Source: Candidatus Melainabacteria bacterium 17Bon1m
GTDB lineage: Bacteria > Cyanobacteriota > Vampirovibrionia > Obscuribacterales > Obscuribacteraceae
NCBI GenBank assembly: GCA_032128875.1
Contig: JAVLKG010000005.1
Span: 256,001 to 320,000 of the forward strand
DNA: 64,000 nt
Reading direction: 5' to 3'
A program made the translations under genes and the position numbers. The notes under the pieces are model-generated. The model was not told where the DNA came from. It did not search any database and saw only the letters and a program-made list of their open reading frames with translations. Below, piece after piece: positions 6,768 through 20,178 of this stretch. Position 1 is the first letter of the stretch. Each line of letters opens with the position of its first letter.

Positions 6768-8291
6768 TTGGATAACCACGTAAAACTCTCATCACGACCG
6801 AACAATTCGAAGCGCTTGCAAATCATTCACTTGCTTTTTGTTCCAATTTCGGTTGTCGTTCTGGCGCTTATGTCGCCATTTTGCGTGGTGGCACACGAAG
6901 GTGAAAACGAAGCGTTCGCCGGTAGCGATCATGCAGGTCCGGAGACTGTGACTGCTAGTCAGCAAGGTCAGCGGGCTCTTGGATTGGAGGTTGGTCCGCC
7001 TCGATTTGCTTTTCTCAAAGACACACTTTCGTCCACTGGTGAAGTTCAAGCCGCCGAAACTCAGTCTTTTGATGTAAATCCTCCGGTGTCAGGGGTGGTG
7101 CAGAATGTTTACGCAAAACAGGGGGACACTGTCAAAAAGGGGCAAGTTCTTGCGCTTGTTCACAGTATCGAGGTTGCAACCACTCTCACACAATTATTGA
7201 ACAATCGTCAGCGCCTTCAAGGTGATATTACGCGCGTCAAAACTGAAATTGGAAGTGACATCACTCTGCAAACCAATCAGGTGCAATTGGCGAAGACTAG
7301 CTATGAAAGAGAAGCTGCGCTTTTCAAAGAAGGTATAAGCGCACAGAAAGCGCTCTTGGAGGCGAAGAATAATCTTGATTCTGCTCAAGTAAAATTGGCG
7401 ACTCTGCAGCAGCGACTGAAGCAGGAGGTGGCTTTGCTTCAGAATCAGCTCAAGATGACTATCGAGTCTGCTGAAGATCAGCTTGAAATTATGGGAATCG
7501 GGAAAGCCGAAGTCGACAGGAGCTTGCAGTCGAATCATGTAACGGCAGACCTTCCTATCGTAGCTCCTGTGAGCGGCGTCGTAACGCAACGCGATATTAC
7601 TCTAGGAGAGCGAGTCGACCCGACCAAGAAGGTTTTCAGCATCGTCAACCTAAGTCCTATCTGGGTAATGGTTGACATTTACCAAGAGCAAATTCCAAAT
7701 GTAAAACAAGGGCAAGAAGTTGCGATAACAACGCCCTCGCATCAAACACTCAGTGGAAAGATTTCATCTGTCGGCACGGTTGTCGATGATGCAACAAAGA
7801 CATTGCACGTGCGTATCATCACCGACAATCCAGCCGGCGTGCTGCGACCAGGCATGTTCGTACAGGCGCAAATTATTATTGGCTCAAAGGACAAACAAAC
7901 TCTGATAGTACCGGATACTGCGGTTTTGCGTGACGGCGATAAGCGTTTTGTCTACACGAAGGTCGATAATTCATTCAAGCCGACTCCCGTGCGCACGGGG
8001 CTCGAAGTTGCGGGAGACGTAGAGATTTTGAGCGGTATTGCGCTTAGCGATCAGATTGTTTTGAGAGGCGCGCAACAGTTGAAAGCGGAGGCTGTCTTGC
8101 GACCGGGCGAAAGTCATGGCGATGTTGCAGATGACACAGATCATGCCTCACACGGCGCGGATGCCGCACCGAAAGTGAACAGCCGAGCGCAGCTGGCGAT
8201 GTTCTTTGCGTTCGGTGTCGCGGCTTCGTTTATGGTCATCGCAATTTGGAGCTTCGTGAGCAAACGCATGAGCGTTCCTGATTCTAAATGA
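6768..8291 (+). CDS. RND efflux membrane-fusion (adaptor) protein, CzcB/CusB-like
   Basis: PPVSGVVQNVYAKQGDTVKKGQ lipoyl halves, long coiled coil, APVSGVV, LRPGMFV; overlaps next gene (ATGA). Confidence 0.92.
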   Translation: MDNHVKLSSRPNNSKRLQIIHLLFVPISVVVLALMSPFCVVAHEGENEAFAGSDHAGPETVTASQQGQRALGLEVGPPRFAFLKDTLSSTGEVQAAETQSFDVNPPVSGVVQNVYAKQGDTVKKGQVLALVHSIEVATTLTQLLNNRQRLQGDITRVKTEIGSDITLQTNQVQLAKTSYEREAALFKEGISAQKALLEAKNNLDSAQVKLATLQQRLKQEVALLQNQLKMTIESAEDQLEIMGIGKAEVDRSLQSNHVTADLPIVAPVSGVVTQRDITLGERVDPTKKVFSIVNLSPIWVMVDIYQEQIPNVKQGQEVAITTPSHQTLSGKISSVGTVVDDATKTLHVRIITDNPAGVLRPGMFVQAQIIIGSKDKQTLIVPDTAVLRDGDKRFVYTKVDNSFKPTPVRTGLEVAGDVEILSGIALSDQIVLRGAQQLKAEAVLRPGESHGDVADDTDHASHGADAAPKVNSRAQLAMFFAFGVAASFMVIAIWSFVSKRMSVPDSK

Positions 8292-11200
8292 TCAATCGTT
8301 TTATCCAATGGTCAATCAACAATCGCTGGATCGTAGCGATCCTTGCGTTTGTGTGGTTGCTCGCCGGAGTCTATGCGACCGACACGATGCCTGTCGACGT
8401 GTTTCCGGACTTCGCGCCTGTGCGTGTCGTTGTGCTCACTGAAGCGCCAGGCTTCGCTCCAGAAGAAGTCGAAAGTCTTGTTACTCGCCCGCTGGAATCG
8501 AATCTCAACGGCACTGCCAACGTGAAAGTGGTGCGTTCCGTTTCGACCATCGGACTATCTGTCATTACGATCATTTTTCAGGACTCGACAAATGTGCTGG
8601 TGGCACGGCAGCTCGTCTCCGAGAAGATTCAGTCGGTGCGTGGGCAATTGCCCGACAATGTGAAAGAGCCCGTCCTGGCTCCAATGACGACTGCCGCAGG
8701 CGACATCCTCAAAATCGGCTTGTATTCGACTGGTGAAACATCATCGATGGACTTGCGCACGCTTGCCGATTGGACTCTGCGCATGAGGCTTATGGCTGTG
8801 CCTGGTGTTTCTAATGTCGTTGTAACCGGCGGCGATGTAAAACAGTATCAAGTTCTCGTAGACCCTGAAAAGCTGAAGCAATACGACGTTACTCTTGCGC
8901 AGGTCGTAGCCGCAGCCAGAGGCAGCAACCTCAACACCGCGGGCGGTATCGTCAGGACAAATGAAAGAGAGGAACTGGTGCGCGGGCTTGGGCGCATTAG
9001 TTCGCCGGCCGAGATTGCTGAAACCGTTGTGGTTGAGCGCGGCAGCCAGCCTATACTGCTGGGCAATGTTGCTGATGTAAAACTCGGCGCTCAGTTTAAA
9101 ATCGGTGATGCGATAGTCGACGGGCACCCCGGTGTCGTGCTTACTGTTTTCAAACAACCTGAAGCTAATACGCTAGAAACAACGCGTACCCTGGAAAAAG
9201 CTCTTAACGATTTGCGTCAGACTTTTCCAAAAGATGTGCAGGTCATAACCACTTTCCGCCAGGCTGACTTTATCGAGATTGCGGTCAAGAATGTTTCGGA
9301 AGCCGTGATTCTTGGCGGTGTGCTGGTCATAATCATTCTCTTTGCGTTTTTGCAGAATTGGCGCACTGCGATTATCTCGCTGACTGCTATTCCTCTTTCG
9401 TTGCTGTCAGCAATAATCGCGCTGAAATTTCACGGATATACGATAAATACAATGACCCTGGGTGGTTTGGCAATCGCAATCGGTGAAGTCGTTGACGATG
9501 CGATTATTGATGTGGAAAACATCTATCGTCGGCTGCGTGAAAACGCCTCCTCTGCGCAACCTAAGTCTGCACTGGCTGTTATGTACGAAGCGTCTGCTGA
9601 GGTGCGCGGCGCTGTCGTCTACGCGACCATGATCGTTGCTTTGATGTTTTTGCCCGTTCTTTCTCTCAAAGGGCTCGAGGGCAAGATTTTTACACCACTG
9701 GCTTATGCTTATCTTGTTTCACTTCTGGCATCACTGGGCGTCGCATTGACCGTAACTCCGGCGATGTGCGCCATTTTGCTCAAGAAAACAAAAGGCGGCG
9801 AAGAGGCCGATGGTCGTGTAATCAAGTTTTTGAAACGCGTTTACTCGCCGATATTGGACTTCTCTCTGCGTCGCCCGCGCTCGATTGTCGCGGGCGCATT
9901 GCTGCTTTTCTTGTTTTCCATGGGAAATTTATTCGTTCTAGGAACAGAATTTCTCCCTCCTTTTGACGAAAACAATTTGATTGTCGTCACGACCTTTATG
10001 CCCGGAACCAGCCTCGATACGACGACTCAGATGGGGACAGAACTGACCTCGCACTTTATTGATAAGCACGAGATCATGGCGGCAAGCCAGCGGGCGGGGC
10101 GTGCAGAGGGGGGTGAAGATTATGGTGCCAGCAACGTCAGTGAATTCGACATTCGCTTGAAGCCGGACACACCCGACAAGCAGCGGTTGCTCAACCATAT
10201 TCGCCATGAATTTTCGCACGTGCCAGGACTGATCGCTGACAGCGGTTCATATTTGCAGCATCGCATGGATCATGCGCTGTCCGGAGTCAATGCCGCGATT
10301 GCTGTGAAATTGTTCGGCCCCGACCTTGATGTTTTGCATGAGAATGCACTGAAAATCGAAAAGGTCATGAAAGAGATCCGAGGCGCAGTAGACGTACACG
10401 TGGAGCAAATTGTCGATGTGCCGCAAATTTCGATTAAGGTCAATCGAGAAGCAGCCGCGCGATACGGCGTACGCGTGAAAGATTTGTCCGACTCCATTGA
10501 GGCGGCATTCCGCGGCGTCACTGTCTCTCAAGTGCTTGAAGGGCAGAAGGCTTTCGACATGTATGTCTGGCTGAAGCCGGAATATCGAAATAACCTGAAC
10601 GTCATTAAGTCGACTCTCGTCGACACGCCTGCCAATATGAAAGTGCCGCTCGGTGCTCTCGCTTCTGTCACTGAAGGCGAGAGTCCAAACACGATAAGCC
10701 ACGAGAATATATCGCGACGTGTCGTCGTGCAGGCCAATGTCTCGGGTCGCGATTTGGGTAGCCTCATTAGCGAAGCGAAGAGTCGAATCGCCAAGGAAGT
10801 TCAGTTGCCGACGGGCTATTACGTTGTTTATGGCGGACAATTTGAGGCGCAGGAAGAAGCATCGCGTCAGTTGGGTATTTTGCTCGCTGCGGCGCTCGTT
10901 GGGATGTTTTTGCTTCTTTCTCTTGCTTTCAAGTCACCCAAGGCGGCGATTATTATCATGGCGAATTTGCCGCTGGCGCTCGTTGGCGGCATCTGGGCGG
11001 TGCTCTTTTCCGGCGCGGTGCTCAGCGTCGGCTCAATGGTCGGATTTATGACACTGTTTGGCATATCTACTCGCAATGGCATCATGCTCGTCTCTCACTT
11101 CAATCAATTGTTGGACGATGGAGGAAGTCTTGAGGATATCGTGCGACACAGCGCTCTCGACCGCCTCAGCCCTGTTTTGATGACTGCCCTGGCTGCTTCC

Positions 11201-11389
11201 CTGGGCGTACTTCCAATCGCTGTTCTGGGGGGCGCTGGCCGTGAATTAGAACAGCCTCTGGCGATTGTAATTCTCGGCGGCATGGTCACGTCCACAGCAC
11301 TGACTCTGGTGGTAATCCCTGCGCTTCTGAAGCTGTTTGGTTCAGGTATTCGCCAAGGCGAAACGATTGACGTGCCCAAAAGCGAGTGA
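8288..11389 (+). CDS. Heavy-metal efflux RND permease, CusA/CzcA family
   Basis: 1033 aa; MPVDVFPD, APEEVE, AIGEVVDDAIIDVEN, RLSPVLMTA, ELEQPLAIVILGG. Confidence 0.95.
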   Translation: MINRFIQWSINNRWIVAILAFVWLLAGVYATDTMPVDVFPDFAPVRVVVLTEAPGFAPEEVESLVTRPLESNLNGTANVKVVRSVSTIGLSVITIIFQDSTNVLVARQLVSEKIQSVRGQLPDNVKEPVLAPMTTAAGDILKIGLYSTGETSSMDLRTLADWTLRMRLMAVPGVSNVVVTGGDVKQYQVLVDPEKLKQYDVTLAQVVAAARGSNLNTAGGIVRTNEREELVRGLGRISSPAEIAETVVVERGSQPILLGNVADVKLGAQFKIGDAIVDGHPGVVLTVFKQPEANTLETTRTLEKALNDLRQTFPKDVQVITTFRQADFIEIAVKNVSEAVILGGVLVIIILFAFLQNWRTAIISLTAIPLSLLSAIIALKFHGYTINTMTLGGLAIAIGEVVDDAIIDVENIYRRLRENASSAQPKSALAVMYEASAEVRGAVVYATMIVALMFLPVLSLKGLEGKIFTPLAYAYLVSLLASLGVALTVTPAMCAILLKKTKGGEEADGRVIKFLKRVYSPILDFSLRRPRSIVAGALLLFLFSMGNLFVLGTEFLPPFDENNLIVVTTFMPGTSLDTTTQMGTELTSHFIDKHEIMAASQRAGRAEGGEDYGASNVSEFDIRLKPDTPDKQRLLNHIRHEFSHVPGLIADSGSYLQHRMDHALSGVNAAIAVKLFGPDLDVLHENALKIEKVMKEIRGAVDVHVEQIVDVPQISIKVNREAAARYGVRVKDLSDSIEAAFRGVTVSQVLEGQKAFDMYVWLKPEYRNNLNVIKSTLVDTPANMKVPLGALASVTEGESPNTISHENISRRVVVQANVSGRDLGSLISEAKSRIAKEVQLPTGYYVVYGGQFEAQEEASRQLGILLAAALVGMFLLLSLAFKSPKAAIIIMANLPLALVGGIWAVLFSGAVLSVGSMVGFMTLFGISTRNGIMLVSHFNQLLDDGGSLEDIVRHSALDRLSPVLMTALAASLGVLPIAVLGGAGRELEQPLAIVILGGMVTSTALTLVVIPALLKLFGSGIRQGETIDVPKSE

Positions 11390-11473
11390 CAATCAGGCAT
11401 ACGATAAAAGTTCGCGGCGATTTTGAACTCTTTGCTAAAGGTTTTCGTCTTATTAATTGGTAGCTAGTGGCAG

Positions 11474-11503
11474 CAAAAATAAAAGCCGCCGAGGGGCGGC
11501 TTC
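11474..11503 (-). terminator. Intrinsic terminator-like hairpin (may act bidirectionally)
   Basis: AAGCCGCC-GAGG-GGCGGCTT stem; on the minus strand followed by TTTATTTTT. Confidence 0.55.
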
Positions 11504-11508
11504 AAAGT

Positions 11509-11580
11509 GGGGCTCGTTATGGTCGGCACCAGCGCTGCCTGTCAAGCTTCCGCGAAGCGGTTCGACTCCGCCGGGCTCCA
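11509..11580 (+). tRNA. Non-canonical or degenerate tRNA-like element with a GUC anticodon loop
   Basis: GGGGCTCG/CGGGCTCC acceptor stem plus A; T-arm GCGG-TTCGACT-CCGC; D hairpin TGGT-CGGC-ACCA; loop CTGTCAA; imperfect anticodon stem; no encoded CCA. Confidence 0.6.
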
Positions 11581-11655
11581 CTCCCCTCAGTATATCACGG
11601 TGTCTTGGTGGCCAATTCGTTTCAATTCACGCGCACTTCACAGGTAGGAGTCTTA

Positions 11656-12174
11656 ATGGTCAAAGGTTGTATCGATCGGAGACCTGGTTGTGGCTCGGCA
11701 GAAATTTTTGGCGCAAAGTCGTCTTGCAATGATCGCTGTCATATCCGCTAGCACCGCTGTTTGGTAACGCGCGTTACTTCACCGGTTGCCGGACGCGTAA
11801 CGCAGGTGATGGCGGTCGTTGGGCAACATGTTGCTGAAGGTCAGCCACTGCTGCTTTTGAGCAGCCAAGATATCGGGCAAGCTGAATCTGATTTGCTGCA
11901 AAATGAAGGAACAGTCGCCGCTGATTTGAAGAAAGACTTGTTGCAAGTTGATTCTGACACTTCACTTGCAGAGGCTCATTTGAAACTCTCAGAGAGCACC
12001 TTCAAGCGCGTCAGTAGTTTGCTAGACGAGAAGATCGCTTCGCGTGCTGATTACGAAGCAGCGCGTACTCATTGGGAGGAGGACAAGATTAGTCTTGAAA
12101 CCTTAAAACGCAAGCGCACTGCCACGGTTTCGCTCTCAAGCGAGCGCTTGAAGAATTTCTGGTTTGGAACTTAA
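11656..12174 (+). pseudogene. Truncated RND membrane-fusion protein remnant
   Basis: VTSPVAGRVTQVMAVVGQHVAEGQPLL plus a coiled coil resembling 6768..8291, ending abruptly. The upstream AGGAG-ATG frame stops at 11751. Confidence 0.72.
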
Positions 12175-19887: not shown

Positions 19888-20178
19888 CTAAGCTGATTCG
19901 TCCTTCTTTTCTAATTTGCTTACTCTGCGCTCAATTCTGGCTATGCGATTTTCCAAGACAGCGTTTGCCTCTTCGCTACGCAGAAGAAACGATGTAATGC
20001 CGTTGAGCTTTAGCGAAACTTCCTTTGCTGACTTGTTTATGCTGACAGTTAGAGCGTCTACCTTGGCGTTGTTTTCATCAAGCCTAGAGTTTGTGCCATC
20101 GAGCTTTTCTCCAAGCTTGGAGAAACCGCTGCGCATCTCGCTTCTCAGCATTTCAATCAATTCTGAATCGTTAGCCAT
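19888..20178 (-). CDS. Small coiled-coil hypothetical protein
   Basis: GGAGGGG RBS; heptad pattern LENRIARIERRVSKLE. Confidence 0.7.
   Translation of the reverse strand: MANDSELIEMLRSEMRSGFSKLGEKLDGTNSRLDENNAKVDALTVSINKSAKEVSLKLNGITSFLLRSEEANAVLENRIARIERRVSKLEKKDESA

Follow-up and report, generated by a model that had tools for sequence, protein, structure and literature searches.

A family of candidate alanine-accepting tRNA-like RNAs with an 8/4 acceptor branch in the Obscuribacteraceae

A 72-nt element on the plus strand of Candidatus Melainabacteria bacterium 17Bon1m (Obscuribacteraceae; contig JAVLKG010000005.1) lies at 11509..11580 of a 64,000-nt stretch, positions 256,001 to 320,000 of the contig, that is here called the window and supplies all coordinates given below without a contig name. 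The favoured explanation, to which we assign roughly even chances, is that this locus is intact and encodes a member of a tRNA-like RNA family confined to one lineage. Such RNAs would be regulated and alanine-accepting, and would resemble allo-tRNAs without their long variable arm (V-arm). The parts of this explanation differ in firmness: the locus very probably specifies a functional, structured plus-strand RNA, charging of that RNA with alanine is reasonably probable, and its use in decoding on the ribosome is proposed only tentatively. The family is apparently undescribed, as it has no Rfam family and no counterpart in the searched literature on Obscuribacter or Melainabacteria tRNA-like RNAs and on allo-tRNAs (covered partly by title), from which its 14-nt 5' motif is also absent. 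The comparison of homologues argues that the element is neither a chance structure nor a decaying tRNA; it is more than chance because 28 homologous copies are known, 97.5% of their pair cells are standard and their covariation is unmatched by shuffles.

Structure and distribution of the family

Read 5' to 3', the element consists of an 8-bp acceptor helix (11509-11516 with 11572-11579, including G3.U70 and U6.G67), a linker (11517-11519), a D-like arm formed by a 4-bp stem and the 4-nt GG-containing loop CGGC (11520-11531), an anticodon-like arm with an interrupted stem (11532-11553), a 3-nt variable region (11554-11556), a T-arm with a 4-bp stem and a canonical T-loop (11557-11571) and the discriminator base A73 (11580). 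The anticodon-like loop has 7 nt, C-T-GTC-A-A (11539-11545), with a hypervariable triplet at 11541-11543. CCA is not encoded, as is also the case for many canonical tRNA genes of this genome. A first-pass annotation, made from the letters of the stretch alone, had described the 8/4 helices, the loops, the 3-nt variable region and the missing CCA, and all of these match the sequence exactly; it had also stated correctly that a 7/5 fold would require an A.C pair. Its reading of the element as a non-canonical tRNA-like RNA is now supported by homologous copies with compensatory changes, and the 8/4 branch that it proposed is borne out by the comparisons that follow.

Homologues were found by DNA search in 7 of 40 relatives at 72-96% identity, some of which carry 2-4 copies. 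Thirteen distinct copies were aligned and the 8/4 structure was written onto them, yielding a covariance model (R1); in this seed alignment, 98.4% of cells are paired and five pairs show compensatory changes. Searched with this model, 104 genomes of the same family yielded 28 copies, which come from 14 genomes and nine of 37 genera. Many of the genomes are incomplete metagenome-assembled genomes (58-99% complete), such that 'not found' does not mean 'absent', and related genomes are not independent samples. In 120 genomes from 10 other families of the class, the model had no matches, and a sample of the phylum gave only four weak ones (33-34 bits), all of them standard tRNA-Ala(tgc) or tRNA-Phe(gaa) genes according to ARAGORN. 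Scores lie at 40-99 bits for family members and at 25-34 bits for tRNA-Ala(UGC) genes (24.9 bits for the tRNA-Ala(tgc) of the same genome). The window copy reaches 97.3 bits, ranking fourth of the 28, and retains all 19 modelled pairs; no second copy was found in its genome, where the element is single-copy. A metagenome scan added six further loci, three of them with new sequences. The copies fall into two subfamilies, a main one of 20 copies that includes the copy in the window and a second one of eight copies that includes a triple tandem array.

The pattern of change across the copies indicates that the structure of the plus-strand RNA is under purifying selection. Of 527 pair cells in the 28-copy alignment, 97.5% are standard, and 13 of the 19 modelled pairs have changed on both sides in a compensatory manner. 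None of 500 shuffles reaches the observed covariation score, and sliding the 3' partners by 1-3 columns reduces pairing to 35-56%. This alignment was fitted to model R1 and thus leans towards it; RNAalifold on unfitted alignments provides an independent check. When applied to a plain MAFFT alignment of the 20 main-subfamily copies with their flanks, it predicts the same helices, including the 8 + 4 arrangement. The division of the branch is further marked by pair 8:65, which is standard in all 28 copies (G-C in 19, A-U in eight, G-U in one). The main subfamily has G8 and C65, so that a 49:65 pair would be A.C and 8:65 is G-C, and the second subfamily has A8 and U65; this coordinated double change supports 8/4. 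The 7-bp acceptor and 5-bp T-stem of a canonical tRNA are therefore lacking in the main subfamily, and the second is ambiguous in this respect.

The D element comprises a 3-4-bp stem and a GG-containing tetraloop, which is enlarged to 5 nt in three copies. All copies but one of the 28 have a canonical T-loop, and the two loops provide the elbow contacts of a tRNA. In every copy, the variable region that separates the T-stem from the anticodon-like stem is only 3 nt long. The 7-nt loop of the anticodon-like arm is invariably flanked by 7 nt on the 5' side and by 7-8 nt on the 3' side; the stem of this arm of seven layers is interrupted by a 2x3 internal loop in the main subfamily and by a mismatch or bulge in the second. 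The outer three pairs of this stem are the most variable part of the RNA, with both sides changed in 10, 7 and 5 of 20 sequences.

Two loci, L036 (G015:C589:663-1274) and L055 (G051:C52, three copies), are triple arrays in which the tandem copies recur about every 270 bp, and each array repeat has its own sense promoter motif and antisense -10 element. Triplets vary inside the arrays (GAG, GAG, CAG in one; GTC, GTC, GAT in the other). One triple array is followed on the same strand by a cluster of four canonical tRNA genes, and another copy is located 65 nt upstream of a canonical tRNA-Arg, positions that speak for a tRNA-like nature. At L050 (G007:C10:123216-123274), which in one genome of the genus is the orthologous site behind the RND pump gene, the anticodon-like arm is wholly lost and the acceptor has a mismatch, leaving 59 nt that score 62 bits; the same genome has a second, intact copy elsewhere, behind a TPR gene.

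Alanine identity and the variable triplet

The G3.U70 pair is the established identity rule for alanyl-tRNA synthetase (AlaRS). Both alanine marks claimed in the first-pass annotation are family traits: G3.U70 occurs in 27 of the 28 copies, A73 in every copy and G2-C71 in 25. Compensatory changes have affected the adjacent pairs 4:69, 6:67, 7:66 and 8:65, and G3.U70 is never 'repaired' among them, which argues that it is selected as a wobble pair. The conserved G.U pairs would become A.C mismatches on the minus strand; this is the chief reason to regard the plus-strand RNA as functional and alanine identity as the property that is maintained. A single AlaRS gene is present in the genome, and a second one was not found. 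Canonical tRNA-Asp and tRNA-Ala genes are also present. Compared by eye, the T-arm and the loop flanks closely match those of tRNA-Ala(UGC), from which the family most likely descends, to judge from this resemblance.

The triplet behaves quite differently from the acceptor end. Among 30 copies, the triplets are GCG (six), GTC (five), GAT (five), GAG (three), CTC (two or three), GCC (two), GAA (two), CAG (two), ACG (one) and TTC (one), a count for which two loops were read by eye, the automatic choice being doubtful, and from which one further copy is missing through loss of its arm. A loop frame of C/T-T-NNN-A-A/C is retained across copies and the triplet is not, with G in first position in 23 of 30. 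Orthologues behind the same RND gene carry GTC in three cases and GCC and GAG in one each, in addition to the one with the arm deleted. The Asp (GUC) anticodon highlighted in the earlier annotation is consequently not a family property: orthologues within the genus differ (GTC, GCC, GAG, CAG), which makes 'Asp' an accident of this genome. Overall, the comparison indicates that the acceptor-end features are kept (the elbow, the 12-bp branch, G3.U70, A73 and a U at -1) and that the triplet is free.

Whether such an RNA decodes is the main point on which two interpretations part. The tentative proposal that it does is favoured because the loop frame, the arm length and the bias towards G34 would be needed by a decoder and not by a mere amino acid donor, because the tight double control outlined in the next section would suit a harmful product, and because of the behaviour of allo-tRNAs. 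Those with an 8/4 branch and G3:U70 are processed, charged and used by Escherichia coli ribosomes, in which they insert alanine (PMC5389517; PMC7609411). Allo-tRNAs of the 8/4 type are known from Acidobacteria, Clostridia and Proteobacteria (PMC5389517), and their anticodons are diverse, with UAU, GCG and GUC predominating (PMC5389517; PMC7609411). In the present family, GCG (six copies) and GTC (five, tied with GAT) are likewise among the commonest triplets.

The alternative, which we regard as somewhat unlikely, is that the sense RNA is matured and probably alanylated, yet never decodes, making it a pseudo-tRNA that serves as an alanine donor for a non-ribosomal transferase, as a ligand or decoy for a nuclease or tRNA-binding protein, or as a regulatory RNA comparable to tRNA-Other of Bacillus cereus. 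This would account for the nearly invariant half made up of acceptor, T-arm and elbow, for the fast-evolving anticodon arm in which only pairing is preserved, for the turnover of triplets among orthologues and for the irregular and over-long anticodon stem. There are also precedents, in that some irregular 8/4 tRNAs are charged yet unused in translation (PMC5389517) and a pseudo-tRNA of Bacillus cereus alters cell wall and antibiotic resistance (PMC3399842). However, a pure acceptor-end donor needs neither the retained loop frame nor the constant arm length, the excess of G in first position looks like a decoding bias, and no conserved protein partner is found beside the copies. A FemAB gene was not found in the genome, and the aminoacyl-phosphatidylglycerol-synthase domain, present in 80 of the 104 family genomes, shows no association with the RNA (10 of 14 genomes with it, 70 of 90 without), so that a donor function for this enzyme was rejected. 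A role resembling that of Y RNA or YrlA was likewise discarded, with no TROVE match in the genome (93% complete) and no Y-RNA family among the Rfam hits.

Predicted sense and antisense transcription units

Each copy looks like a self-contained gene. At this locus, two convergent, fully overlapping units are predicted, one for the sense tRNA-like RNA and one for a cis-antisense RNA, roughly 110 nt long, which would stop just short of the sense promoter. On the plus strand, an alternative-sigma-type promoter motif spans 11423..11449 and consists of TTGAAC (11423-11428), a 17-nt spacer and CGTC (11446-11449). The form TGAAC-N17-CGT precedes 25 of the 28 copies at a distance of 52-75 nt from G1, except for one copy in which the motif is 20 nt before G1 with no hairpin between. 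'AAC' at -35 and 'CGT' at -10 are hallmarks of promoters for extracytoplasmic function-type sigma factors, to which the motif is provisionally assigned by this consensus, and the -10 part also resembles the ComX box.

A matrix derived from the family's promoter sites was scanned over the genome, with reversed or complement-only controls. This returned 41 sites above 20 bits and 25 above 25 bits, compared with 4 and 0 for the controls. The motif class reads wTTGAACTTTTT, with CGT 17 nt after AAC and a T-A step about 12 nt later, and is often placed directly before an ATG, possibly giving leaderless transcripts. For each of the 40 other sites, the target was taken to be the first open reading frame (ORF) of at least 70 aa in the 400 nt that follow; a single site had no such ORF. 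Among the resulting 39 ORFs, Pfam identifies the DNA polymerase III alpha subunit (DnaE), DnaB, PriA, RecJ, an SNF2 helicase, RadC and UPF0102, as well as a ComM-type Mg-chelatase-like ATPase, a ComF-like phosphoribosyltransferase and three DprA_WH proteins; two CpxP-like proteins, three DUF6088 proteins and a few others complete the set, and 16 of the 39 have no family. The tRNA-like RNA therefore appears, from these shared motifs, to belong to a regulon with a flavour of DNA replication, recombination and competence, and the sites outline a possible regulon of an alternative sigma factor that would serve DNA processing or competence in the uncultured Obscuribacteraceae. The motif is also present at about 20236 of the window (minus strand), upstream of a 96-aa ORF (19891-20178, minus strand).

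The predicted 5' leader of the sense transcript extends over 11459..11508 (plus strand), its start being placed near 11459, 12-13 nt after CGT. This distance is taken from genomic sites of the same promoter class, at which it leads to a T-A or T-G step or to the ATG of a leaderless gene. The last three bases of the leader, -3 to -1 (11506..11508, plus strand), can pair with 11580-11582, which would lengthen the acceptor helix to 11 bp. According to RNAalifold on 20 copies, -1:73 is U-A in all 20, -2:74 is G-C in 18 and A-U in two, and -3:75 is A-U in 14, G-C in three, G-U in two and A.A in one; similar pairing is seen in the second subfamily. The mean contiguous leader-trailer run is 3.18, compared with 2.52 +/- 0.15 after shuffling (maximum 3.04 of 2000).

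On the minus strand, the sequence TG-n-TATACT (11589..11597) is predicted to fire antisense transcription into the tRNA-like unit, a putative promoter role assigned by the extended -10 consensus. Of the 28 copies, 25 have a TA-nnn-T core 7-11 nt, mostly 8 nt, past the A73 complement, and in 24 of these TG-n precedes it. Termination would occur at 11472..11503 (minus strand), where a 9-bp GC-rich hairpin (11503..11482) is followed by a T-run; a terminator scan found no other terminator-like site in 11300-11800. The same hairpin sits in the sense leader, between the sense start and G1, with the T-run present on the minus strand only. Both the hairpin and the A-rich tract located 5' of it on the plus strand are conserved in the main subfamily, and by inspection no minus-strand terminator is evident in the eight copies of the second subfamily. 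A 42-codon minus-strand ORF (11453-11581) has its GTG start at the predicted antisense transcript start and runs through the terminator. It was judged non-coding, given the base-pair compensation in the variable stem, length differences of 1-13 nt between copies and a frame that passes through the terminator.

A promoter and a terminator around about 110 nt is the standard layout of a small-RNA gene. This allows a quite different interpretation, in which the minus-strand small RNA is the functional product, and either the tRNA shape of the plus strand is heritage from a tRNA-Ala gene or the sense RNA is just a target; we consider it distinctly improbable. The extended -10 element recurs in 24 of 28 copies at its fixed distance, and the hairpin terminates only on the minus strand, as this interpretation would require. 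However, the invariant G3.U70 and U6.G67 become A.C mismatches on that strand and are never repaired despite compensating neighbours, one of the two subfamilies shows no evident terminator, a sense promoter is kept in 25 of 28 copies, and the T-loop consensus, GG tetraloop and A73 are meaningful on the plus strand alone.

Proposed action, known relatives and genomic surroundings

Taken together with the favoured explanation of a regulated, alanine-accepting tRNA-like RNA, these features suggest the following course of events. Induction of the sense RNA would accompany that of the regulon in which genes for DNA replication, recombination and competence-type functions are prominent, and the leader of its precursor would pair with the trailer. 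RNase P and a 3' nuclease would trim the precursor, the CCA-adding enzyme would complete its end, and the single AlaRS, which ignores anticodons, would charge the product with alanine. Outside the induced state, the antisense RNA would keep the sense RNA low, either by duplex formation or by transcription interference. Finally, EF-Tu would deliver the charged RNA to the ribosome, where a sense codon (GAC in this genome) would occasionally be read as alanine. An unlikely extension would make the locus a gated mistranslation device, with alanine-charged 'wildcard' tRNAs whose anticodons diversify among copies and species; an alternative sigma factor would induce them along with genes of DNA uptake, recombination and replication restart, and a cis-encoded antisense RNA would silence them at other times, in effect an RNA-RNA toxin-antitoxin pair in which a missense tRNA is the toxin.

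A number of observations weigh against this explanation. The triplet turns over rapidly, which counts against the decoding step; since it changes among orthologues in one genus, no particular codon is under selection. The anticodon-like stem is irregular and about two layers above canonical length, and may fit the ribosome poorly. The distribution is patchy, with 14 of 104 genomes carrying the RNA, and damaged copies exist, including one without the whole anticodon arm, several with acceptor mismatches and, in the closest relative, one with a T-stem mismatch. For the second subfamily alone, a 7/5 fold is equally possible and is the one preferred by RNAalifold. Covarying leader-trailer pairing is unexpected for a simple pre-tRNA, and the mature ends could perhaps differ from G1 and A73. 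In addition, the conserved antisense promoter and terminator mean that the minus-strand RNA could be the main product.

Standard detection programs, among them ARAGORN as proposed for a check in the first-pass annotation, miss the window copy. ARAGORN calls no tRNA or tmRNA gene in the window and Rfam has no match there at gathering score. Even at E<=10, RF00005 does not match the window copy, for which Rfam gives only cyano_tmRNA (16.4 bits) and tmRNA_permuted (12 bits), both through the T-arm and the 3' acceptor strand. ARAGORN leaves 23 of the 28 copies uncalled. In favour of a tRNA-like nature, it reports the other five as tRNAs with the anticodon read from this loop (Arg-gcg, Ile-gat twice and Asp-gtc twice), and sub-threshold Rfam matches on other copies are to tRNA-Sec (24-29 bits; gathering score 47), to tmRNA and, in one case, to tRNA (25.6 bits; gathering score 29). 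Thermodynamically, the 72-mer alone is ordinary, with a minimum free energy of -28.4 kcal/mol (z = -0.43) that is equalled or bettered by 57 of 200 shuffles; its minimum free energy fold retains the 8-bp helix and forms no cloverleaf. The minus strand gives z = 0.05. In four sequencing runs recorded as transcriptomic, the coverage of 11200-11900 comes from single contigs about 22-23 kb long and is flat in depth; records in these runs are up to 72-156 kb in length. Such flat, long-contig coverage is DNA-like, and the runs are therefore uninformative on transcription, ends and strand; they may be the source of this assembly.

Among known systems, allo-tRNAs are the closest in form, and the comparison drawn in the first-pass annotation is apt. 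Both kinds have an acceptor branch of 12 bp divided 8/4, varied anticodons at odds with the charging identity, occurrence in arrays and a best Rfam resemblance to tRNA-Sec, and G3:U70 is shared with those allo-tRNAs that insert alanine (PMC5389517; PMC7609411). The D and anticodon arms agree in part: there is a D tetraloop and an anticodon stem of increased length, yet the D-stem has only 3-4 bp where that of allo-tRNAs is long, and the seven layers of the anticodon stem are interrupted. The Obscuribacteraceae family differs in its 3-nt variable region without a long V-arm and in its A73 (allo-tRNAs mostly have G73 or U73). Its body appears to be derived from tRNA-Ala and is not Ser- or Sec-like, it belongs to a different phylum, and no toxin-antitoxin neighbours were seen. 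It also has a predicted dedicated promoter of alternative-sigma type and a predicted cis-antisense unit, an arrangement not described for allo-tRNAs in the sections of PMC5389517 that were consulted. Its invariant end motifs are absent from the machine-readable text, figures excluded, of the supplement to PMC5389517.

Relative to its probable ancestor tRNA-Ala(UGC), the family has kept G3.U70, A73, G2-C71, a near-identical T-arm and the loop flanks, as compared by eye. In contrast, it has an 8/4 rather than a 7/5 branch (main subfamily), a D tetraloop, a longer and irregular anticodon stem, a 3-nt variable region and a triplet that is neither UGC nor conserved. More distant parallels are provided by tRNA-Other of B. 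cereus, a tRNA-like gene that similarly defies standard assignment and for which a regulatory role beyond translation has been proposed (PMC3399842). It differs in being a single gene and in its charging system, a LysRS pair (as cited in PMC5389517). Proline-identity tRNAs of Streptomyces and relatives also show disagreement between anticodon and charging identity and are proposed to be a regulated source of mistranslation (PMC10404621). Those have a canonical shape and need a dedicated ProRS paralogue, whereas a single AlaRS and a non-canonical shape are involved here.

The tRNA-like domain of transfer-messenger RNA (tmRNA) is likewise an alanine-type mimic with G3.U70, A73 and a reduced D region, and is charged without a decoding anticodon. 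The present RNA could thus be imagined as a minimal, alanine-charged tmRNA-like module without a message part that enters stalled ribosomes with SmpB, an idea that we rate as very improbable. The Rfam matches at the window copy are all to tmRNA families, and such matches range from 12 to 24 bits across copies. Yet all of these fall far below the gathering scores of 47-70 bits, and the 72-nt RNA lacks pseudoknots as well as a message part and retains a stem-closed D tetraloop and an anticodon-like arm, both missing from tmRNA. Moreover, a complete, genuine tmRNA gene (119.5 bits) is found elsewhere in the genome; this ssrA is unrelated in sequence, and was rejected as a source of the element for that reason.

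If the favoured explanation is correct, non-canonical 8/4 tRNAs extend to a sister lineage of the cyanobacteria, in a compact form that lacks the V-arm and is built on tRNA-Ala. The family would also represent a natural case of alanine identity maintained under selection with a free anticodon, which is the condition for anticodon-independent missense insertion. Dual control by a stress- or competence-type promoter and a cis-antisense RNA offers a testable model for the deployment of a potentially harmful tRNA, and a 72-nt, anticodon-agnostic scaffold charged by AlaRS, if so charged, could interest genetic-code engineers.

On its upstream side, the element is preceded by genes for a membrane-fusion protein (6768-8291) and an RND pump (8288-11389), the latter intact, and it lies about 76 nt before a membrane-fusion-protein pseudogene (11656-12174, extending to about 12265). 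The 'pseudogene debris' recognized in the first-pass annotation is accordingly real: compared with the closest relative, this efflux gene keeps its start region and has two internal deletions in the DNA alignment, one near 11760 (about 280 nt) and one near 12160 (about 600 nt). What remains includes a 137-aa ORF (11761-12174), which shares 96% identity with residues 129-259 of that relative's intact 478-aa gene. The debris turns out to be incidental to the element. The first-pass annotation had raised the possibility of a decaying tRNA or a mobile-element integration scar beside the broken efflux gene, which is also suggested by the position between an intact gene and a pseudogene, by downstream content at the orthologous copy that varies among genomes of the genus and by the failure of detectors to call this copy. 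This is scarcely credible in view of an identical non-canonical architecture with compensatory changes in 28 copies from nine genera, the full complement of modelled pairs in the window, a conserved promoter of its own, flanks in which no integrase or direct repeat was seen, and homologues that, when inspected, are not canonical tRNA-Asp.

Elsewhere in the family, the copies are flanked by diverse genes, among them those for an RND pump, a PPDK-like protein, a TPR protein, a TPP enzyme, a lyase, a NUDIX protein, a VWA protein, RadC, EF-Tu and an RF-1-domain protein. No conserved protein neighbour, integrase, direct repeat or toxin-antitoxin genes were seen in these flanks. The genome carrying the window copy comprises 7.55 Mb in 35 contigs. 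It also contains three dense tRNA clusters outside the window (C1:269233-270215, C3:1007950-1010321 and C4:286272-286804), each with 5-10 genes, many of which are atypical and one of which has no anticodon assignable by ARAGORN. These look like mobile-element or phage-type tRNA arrays.

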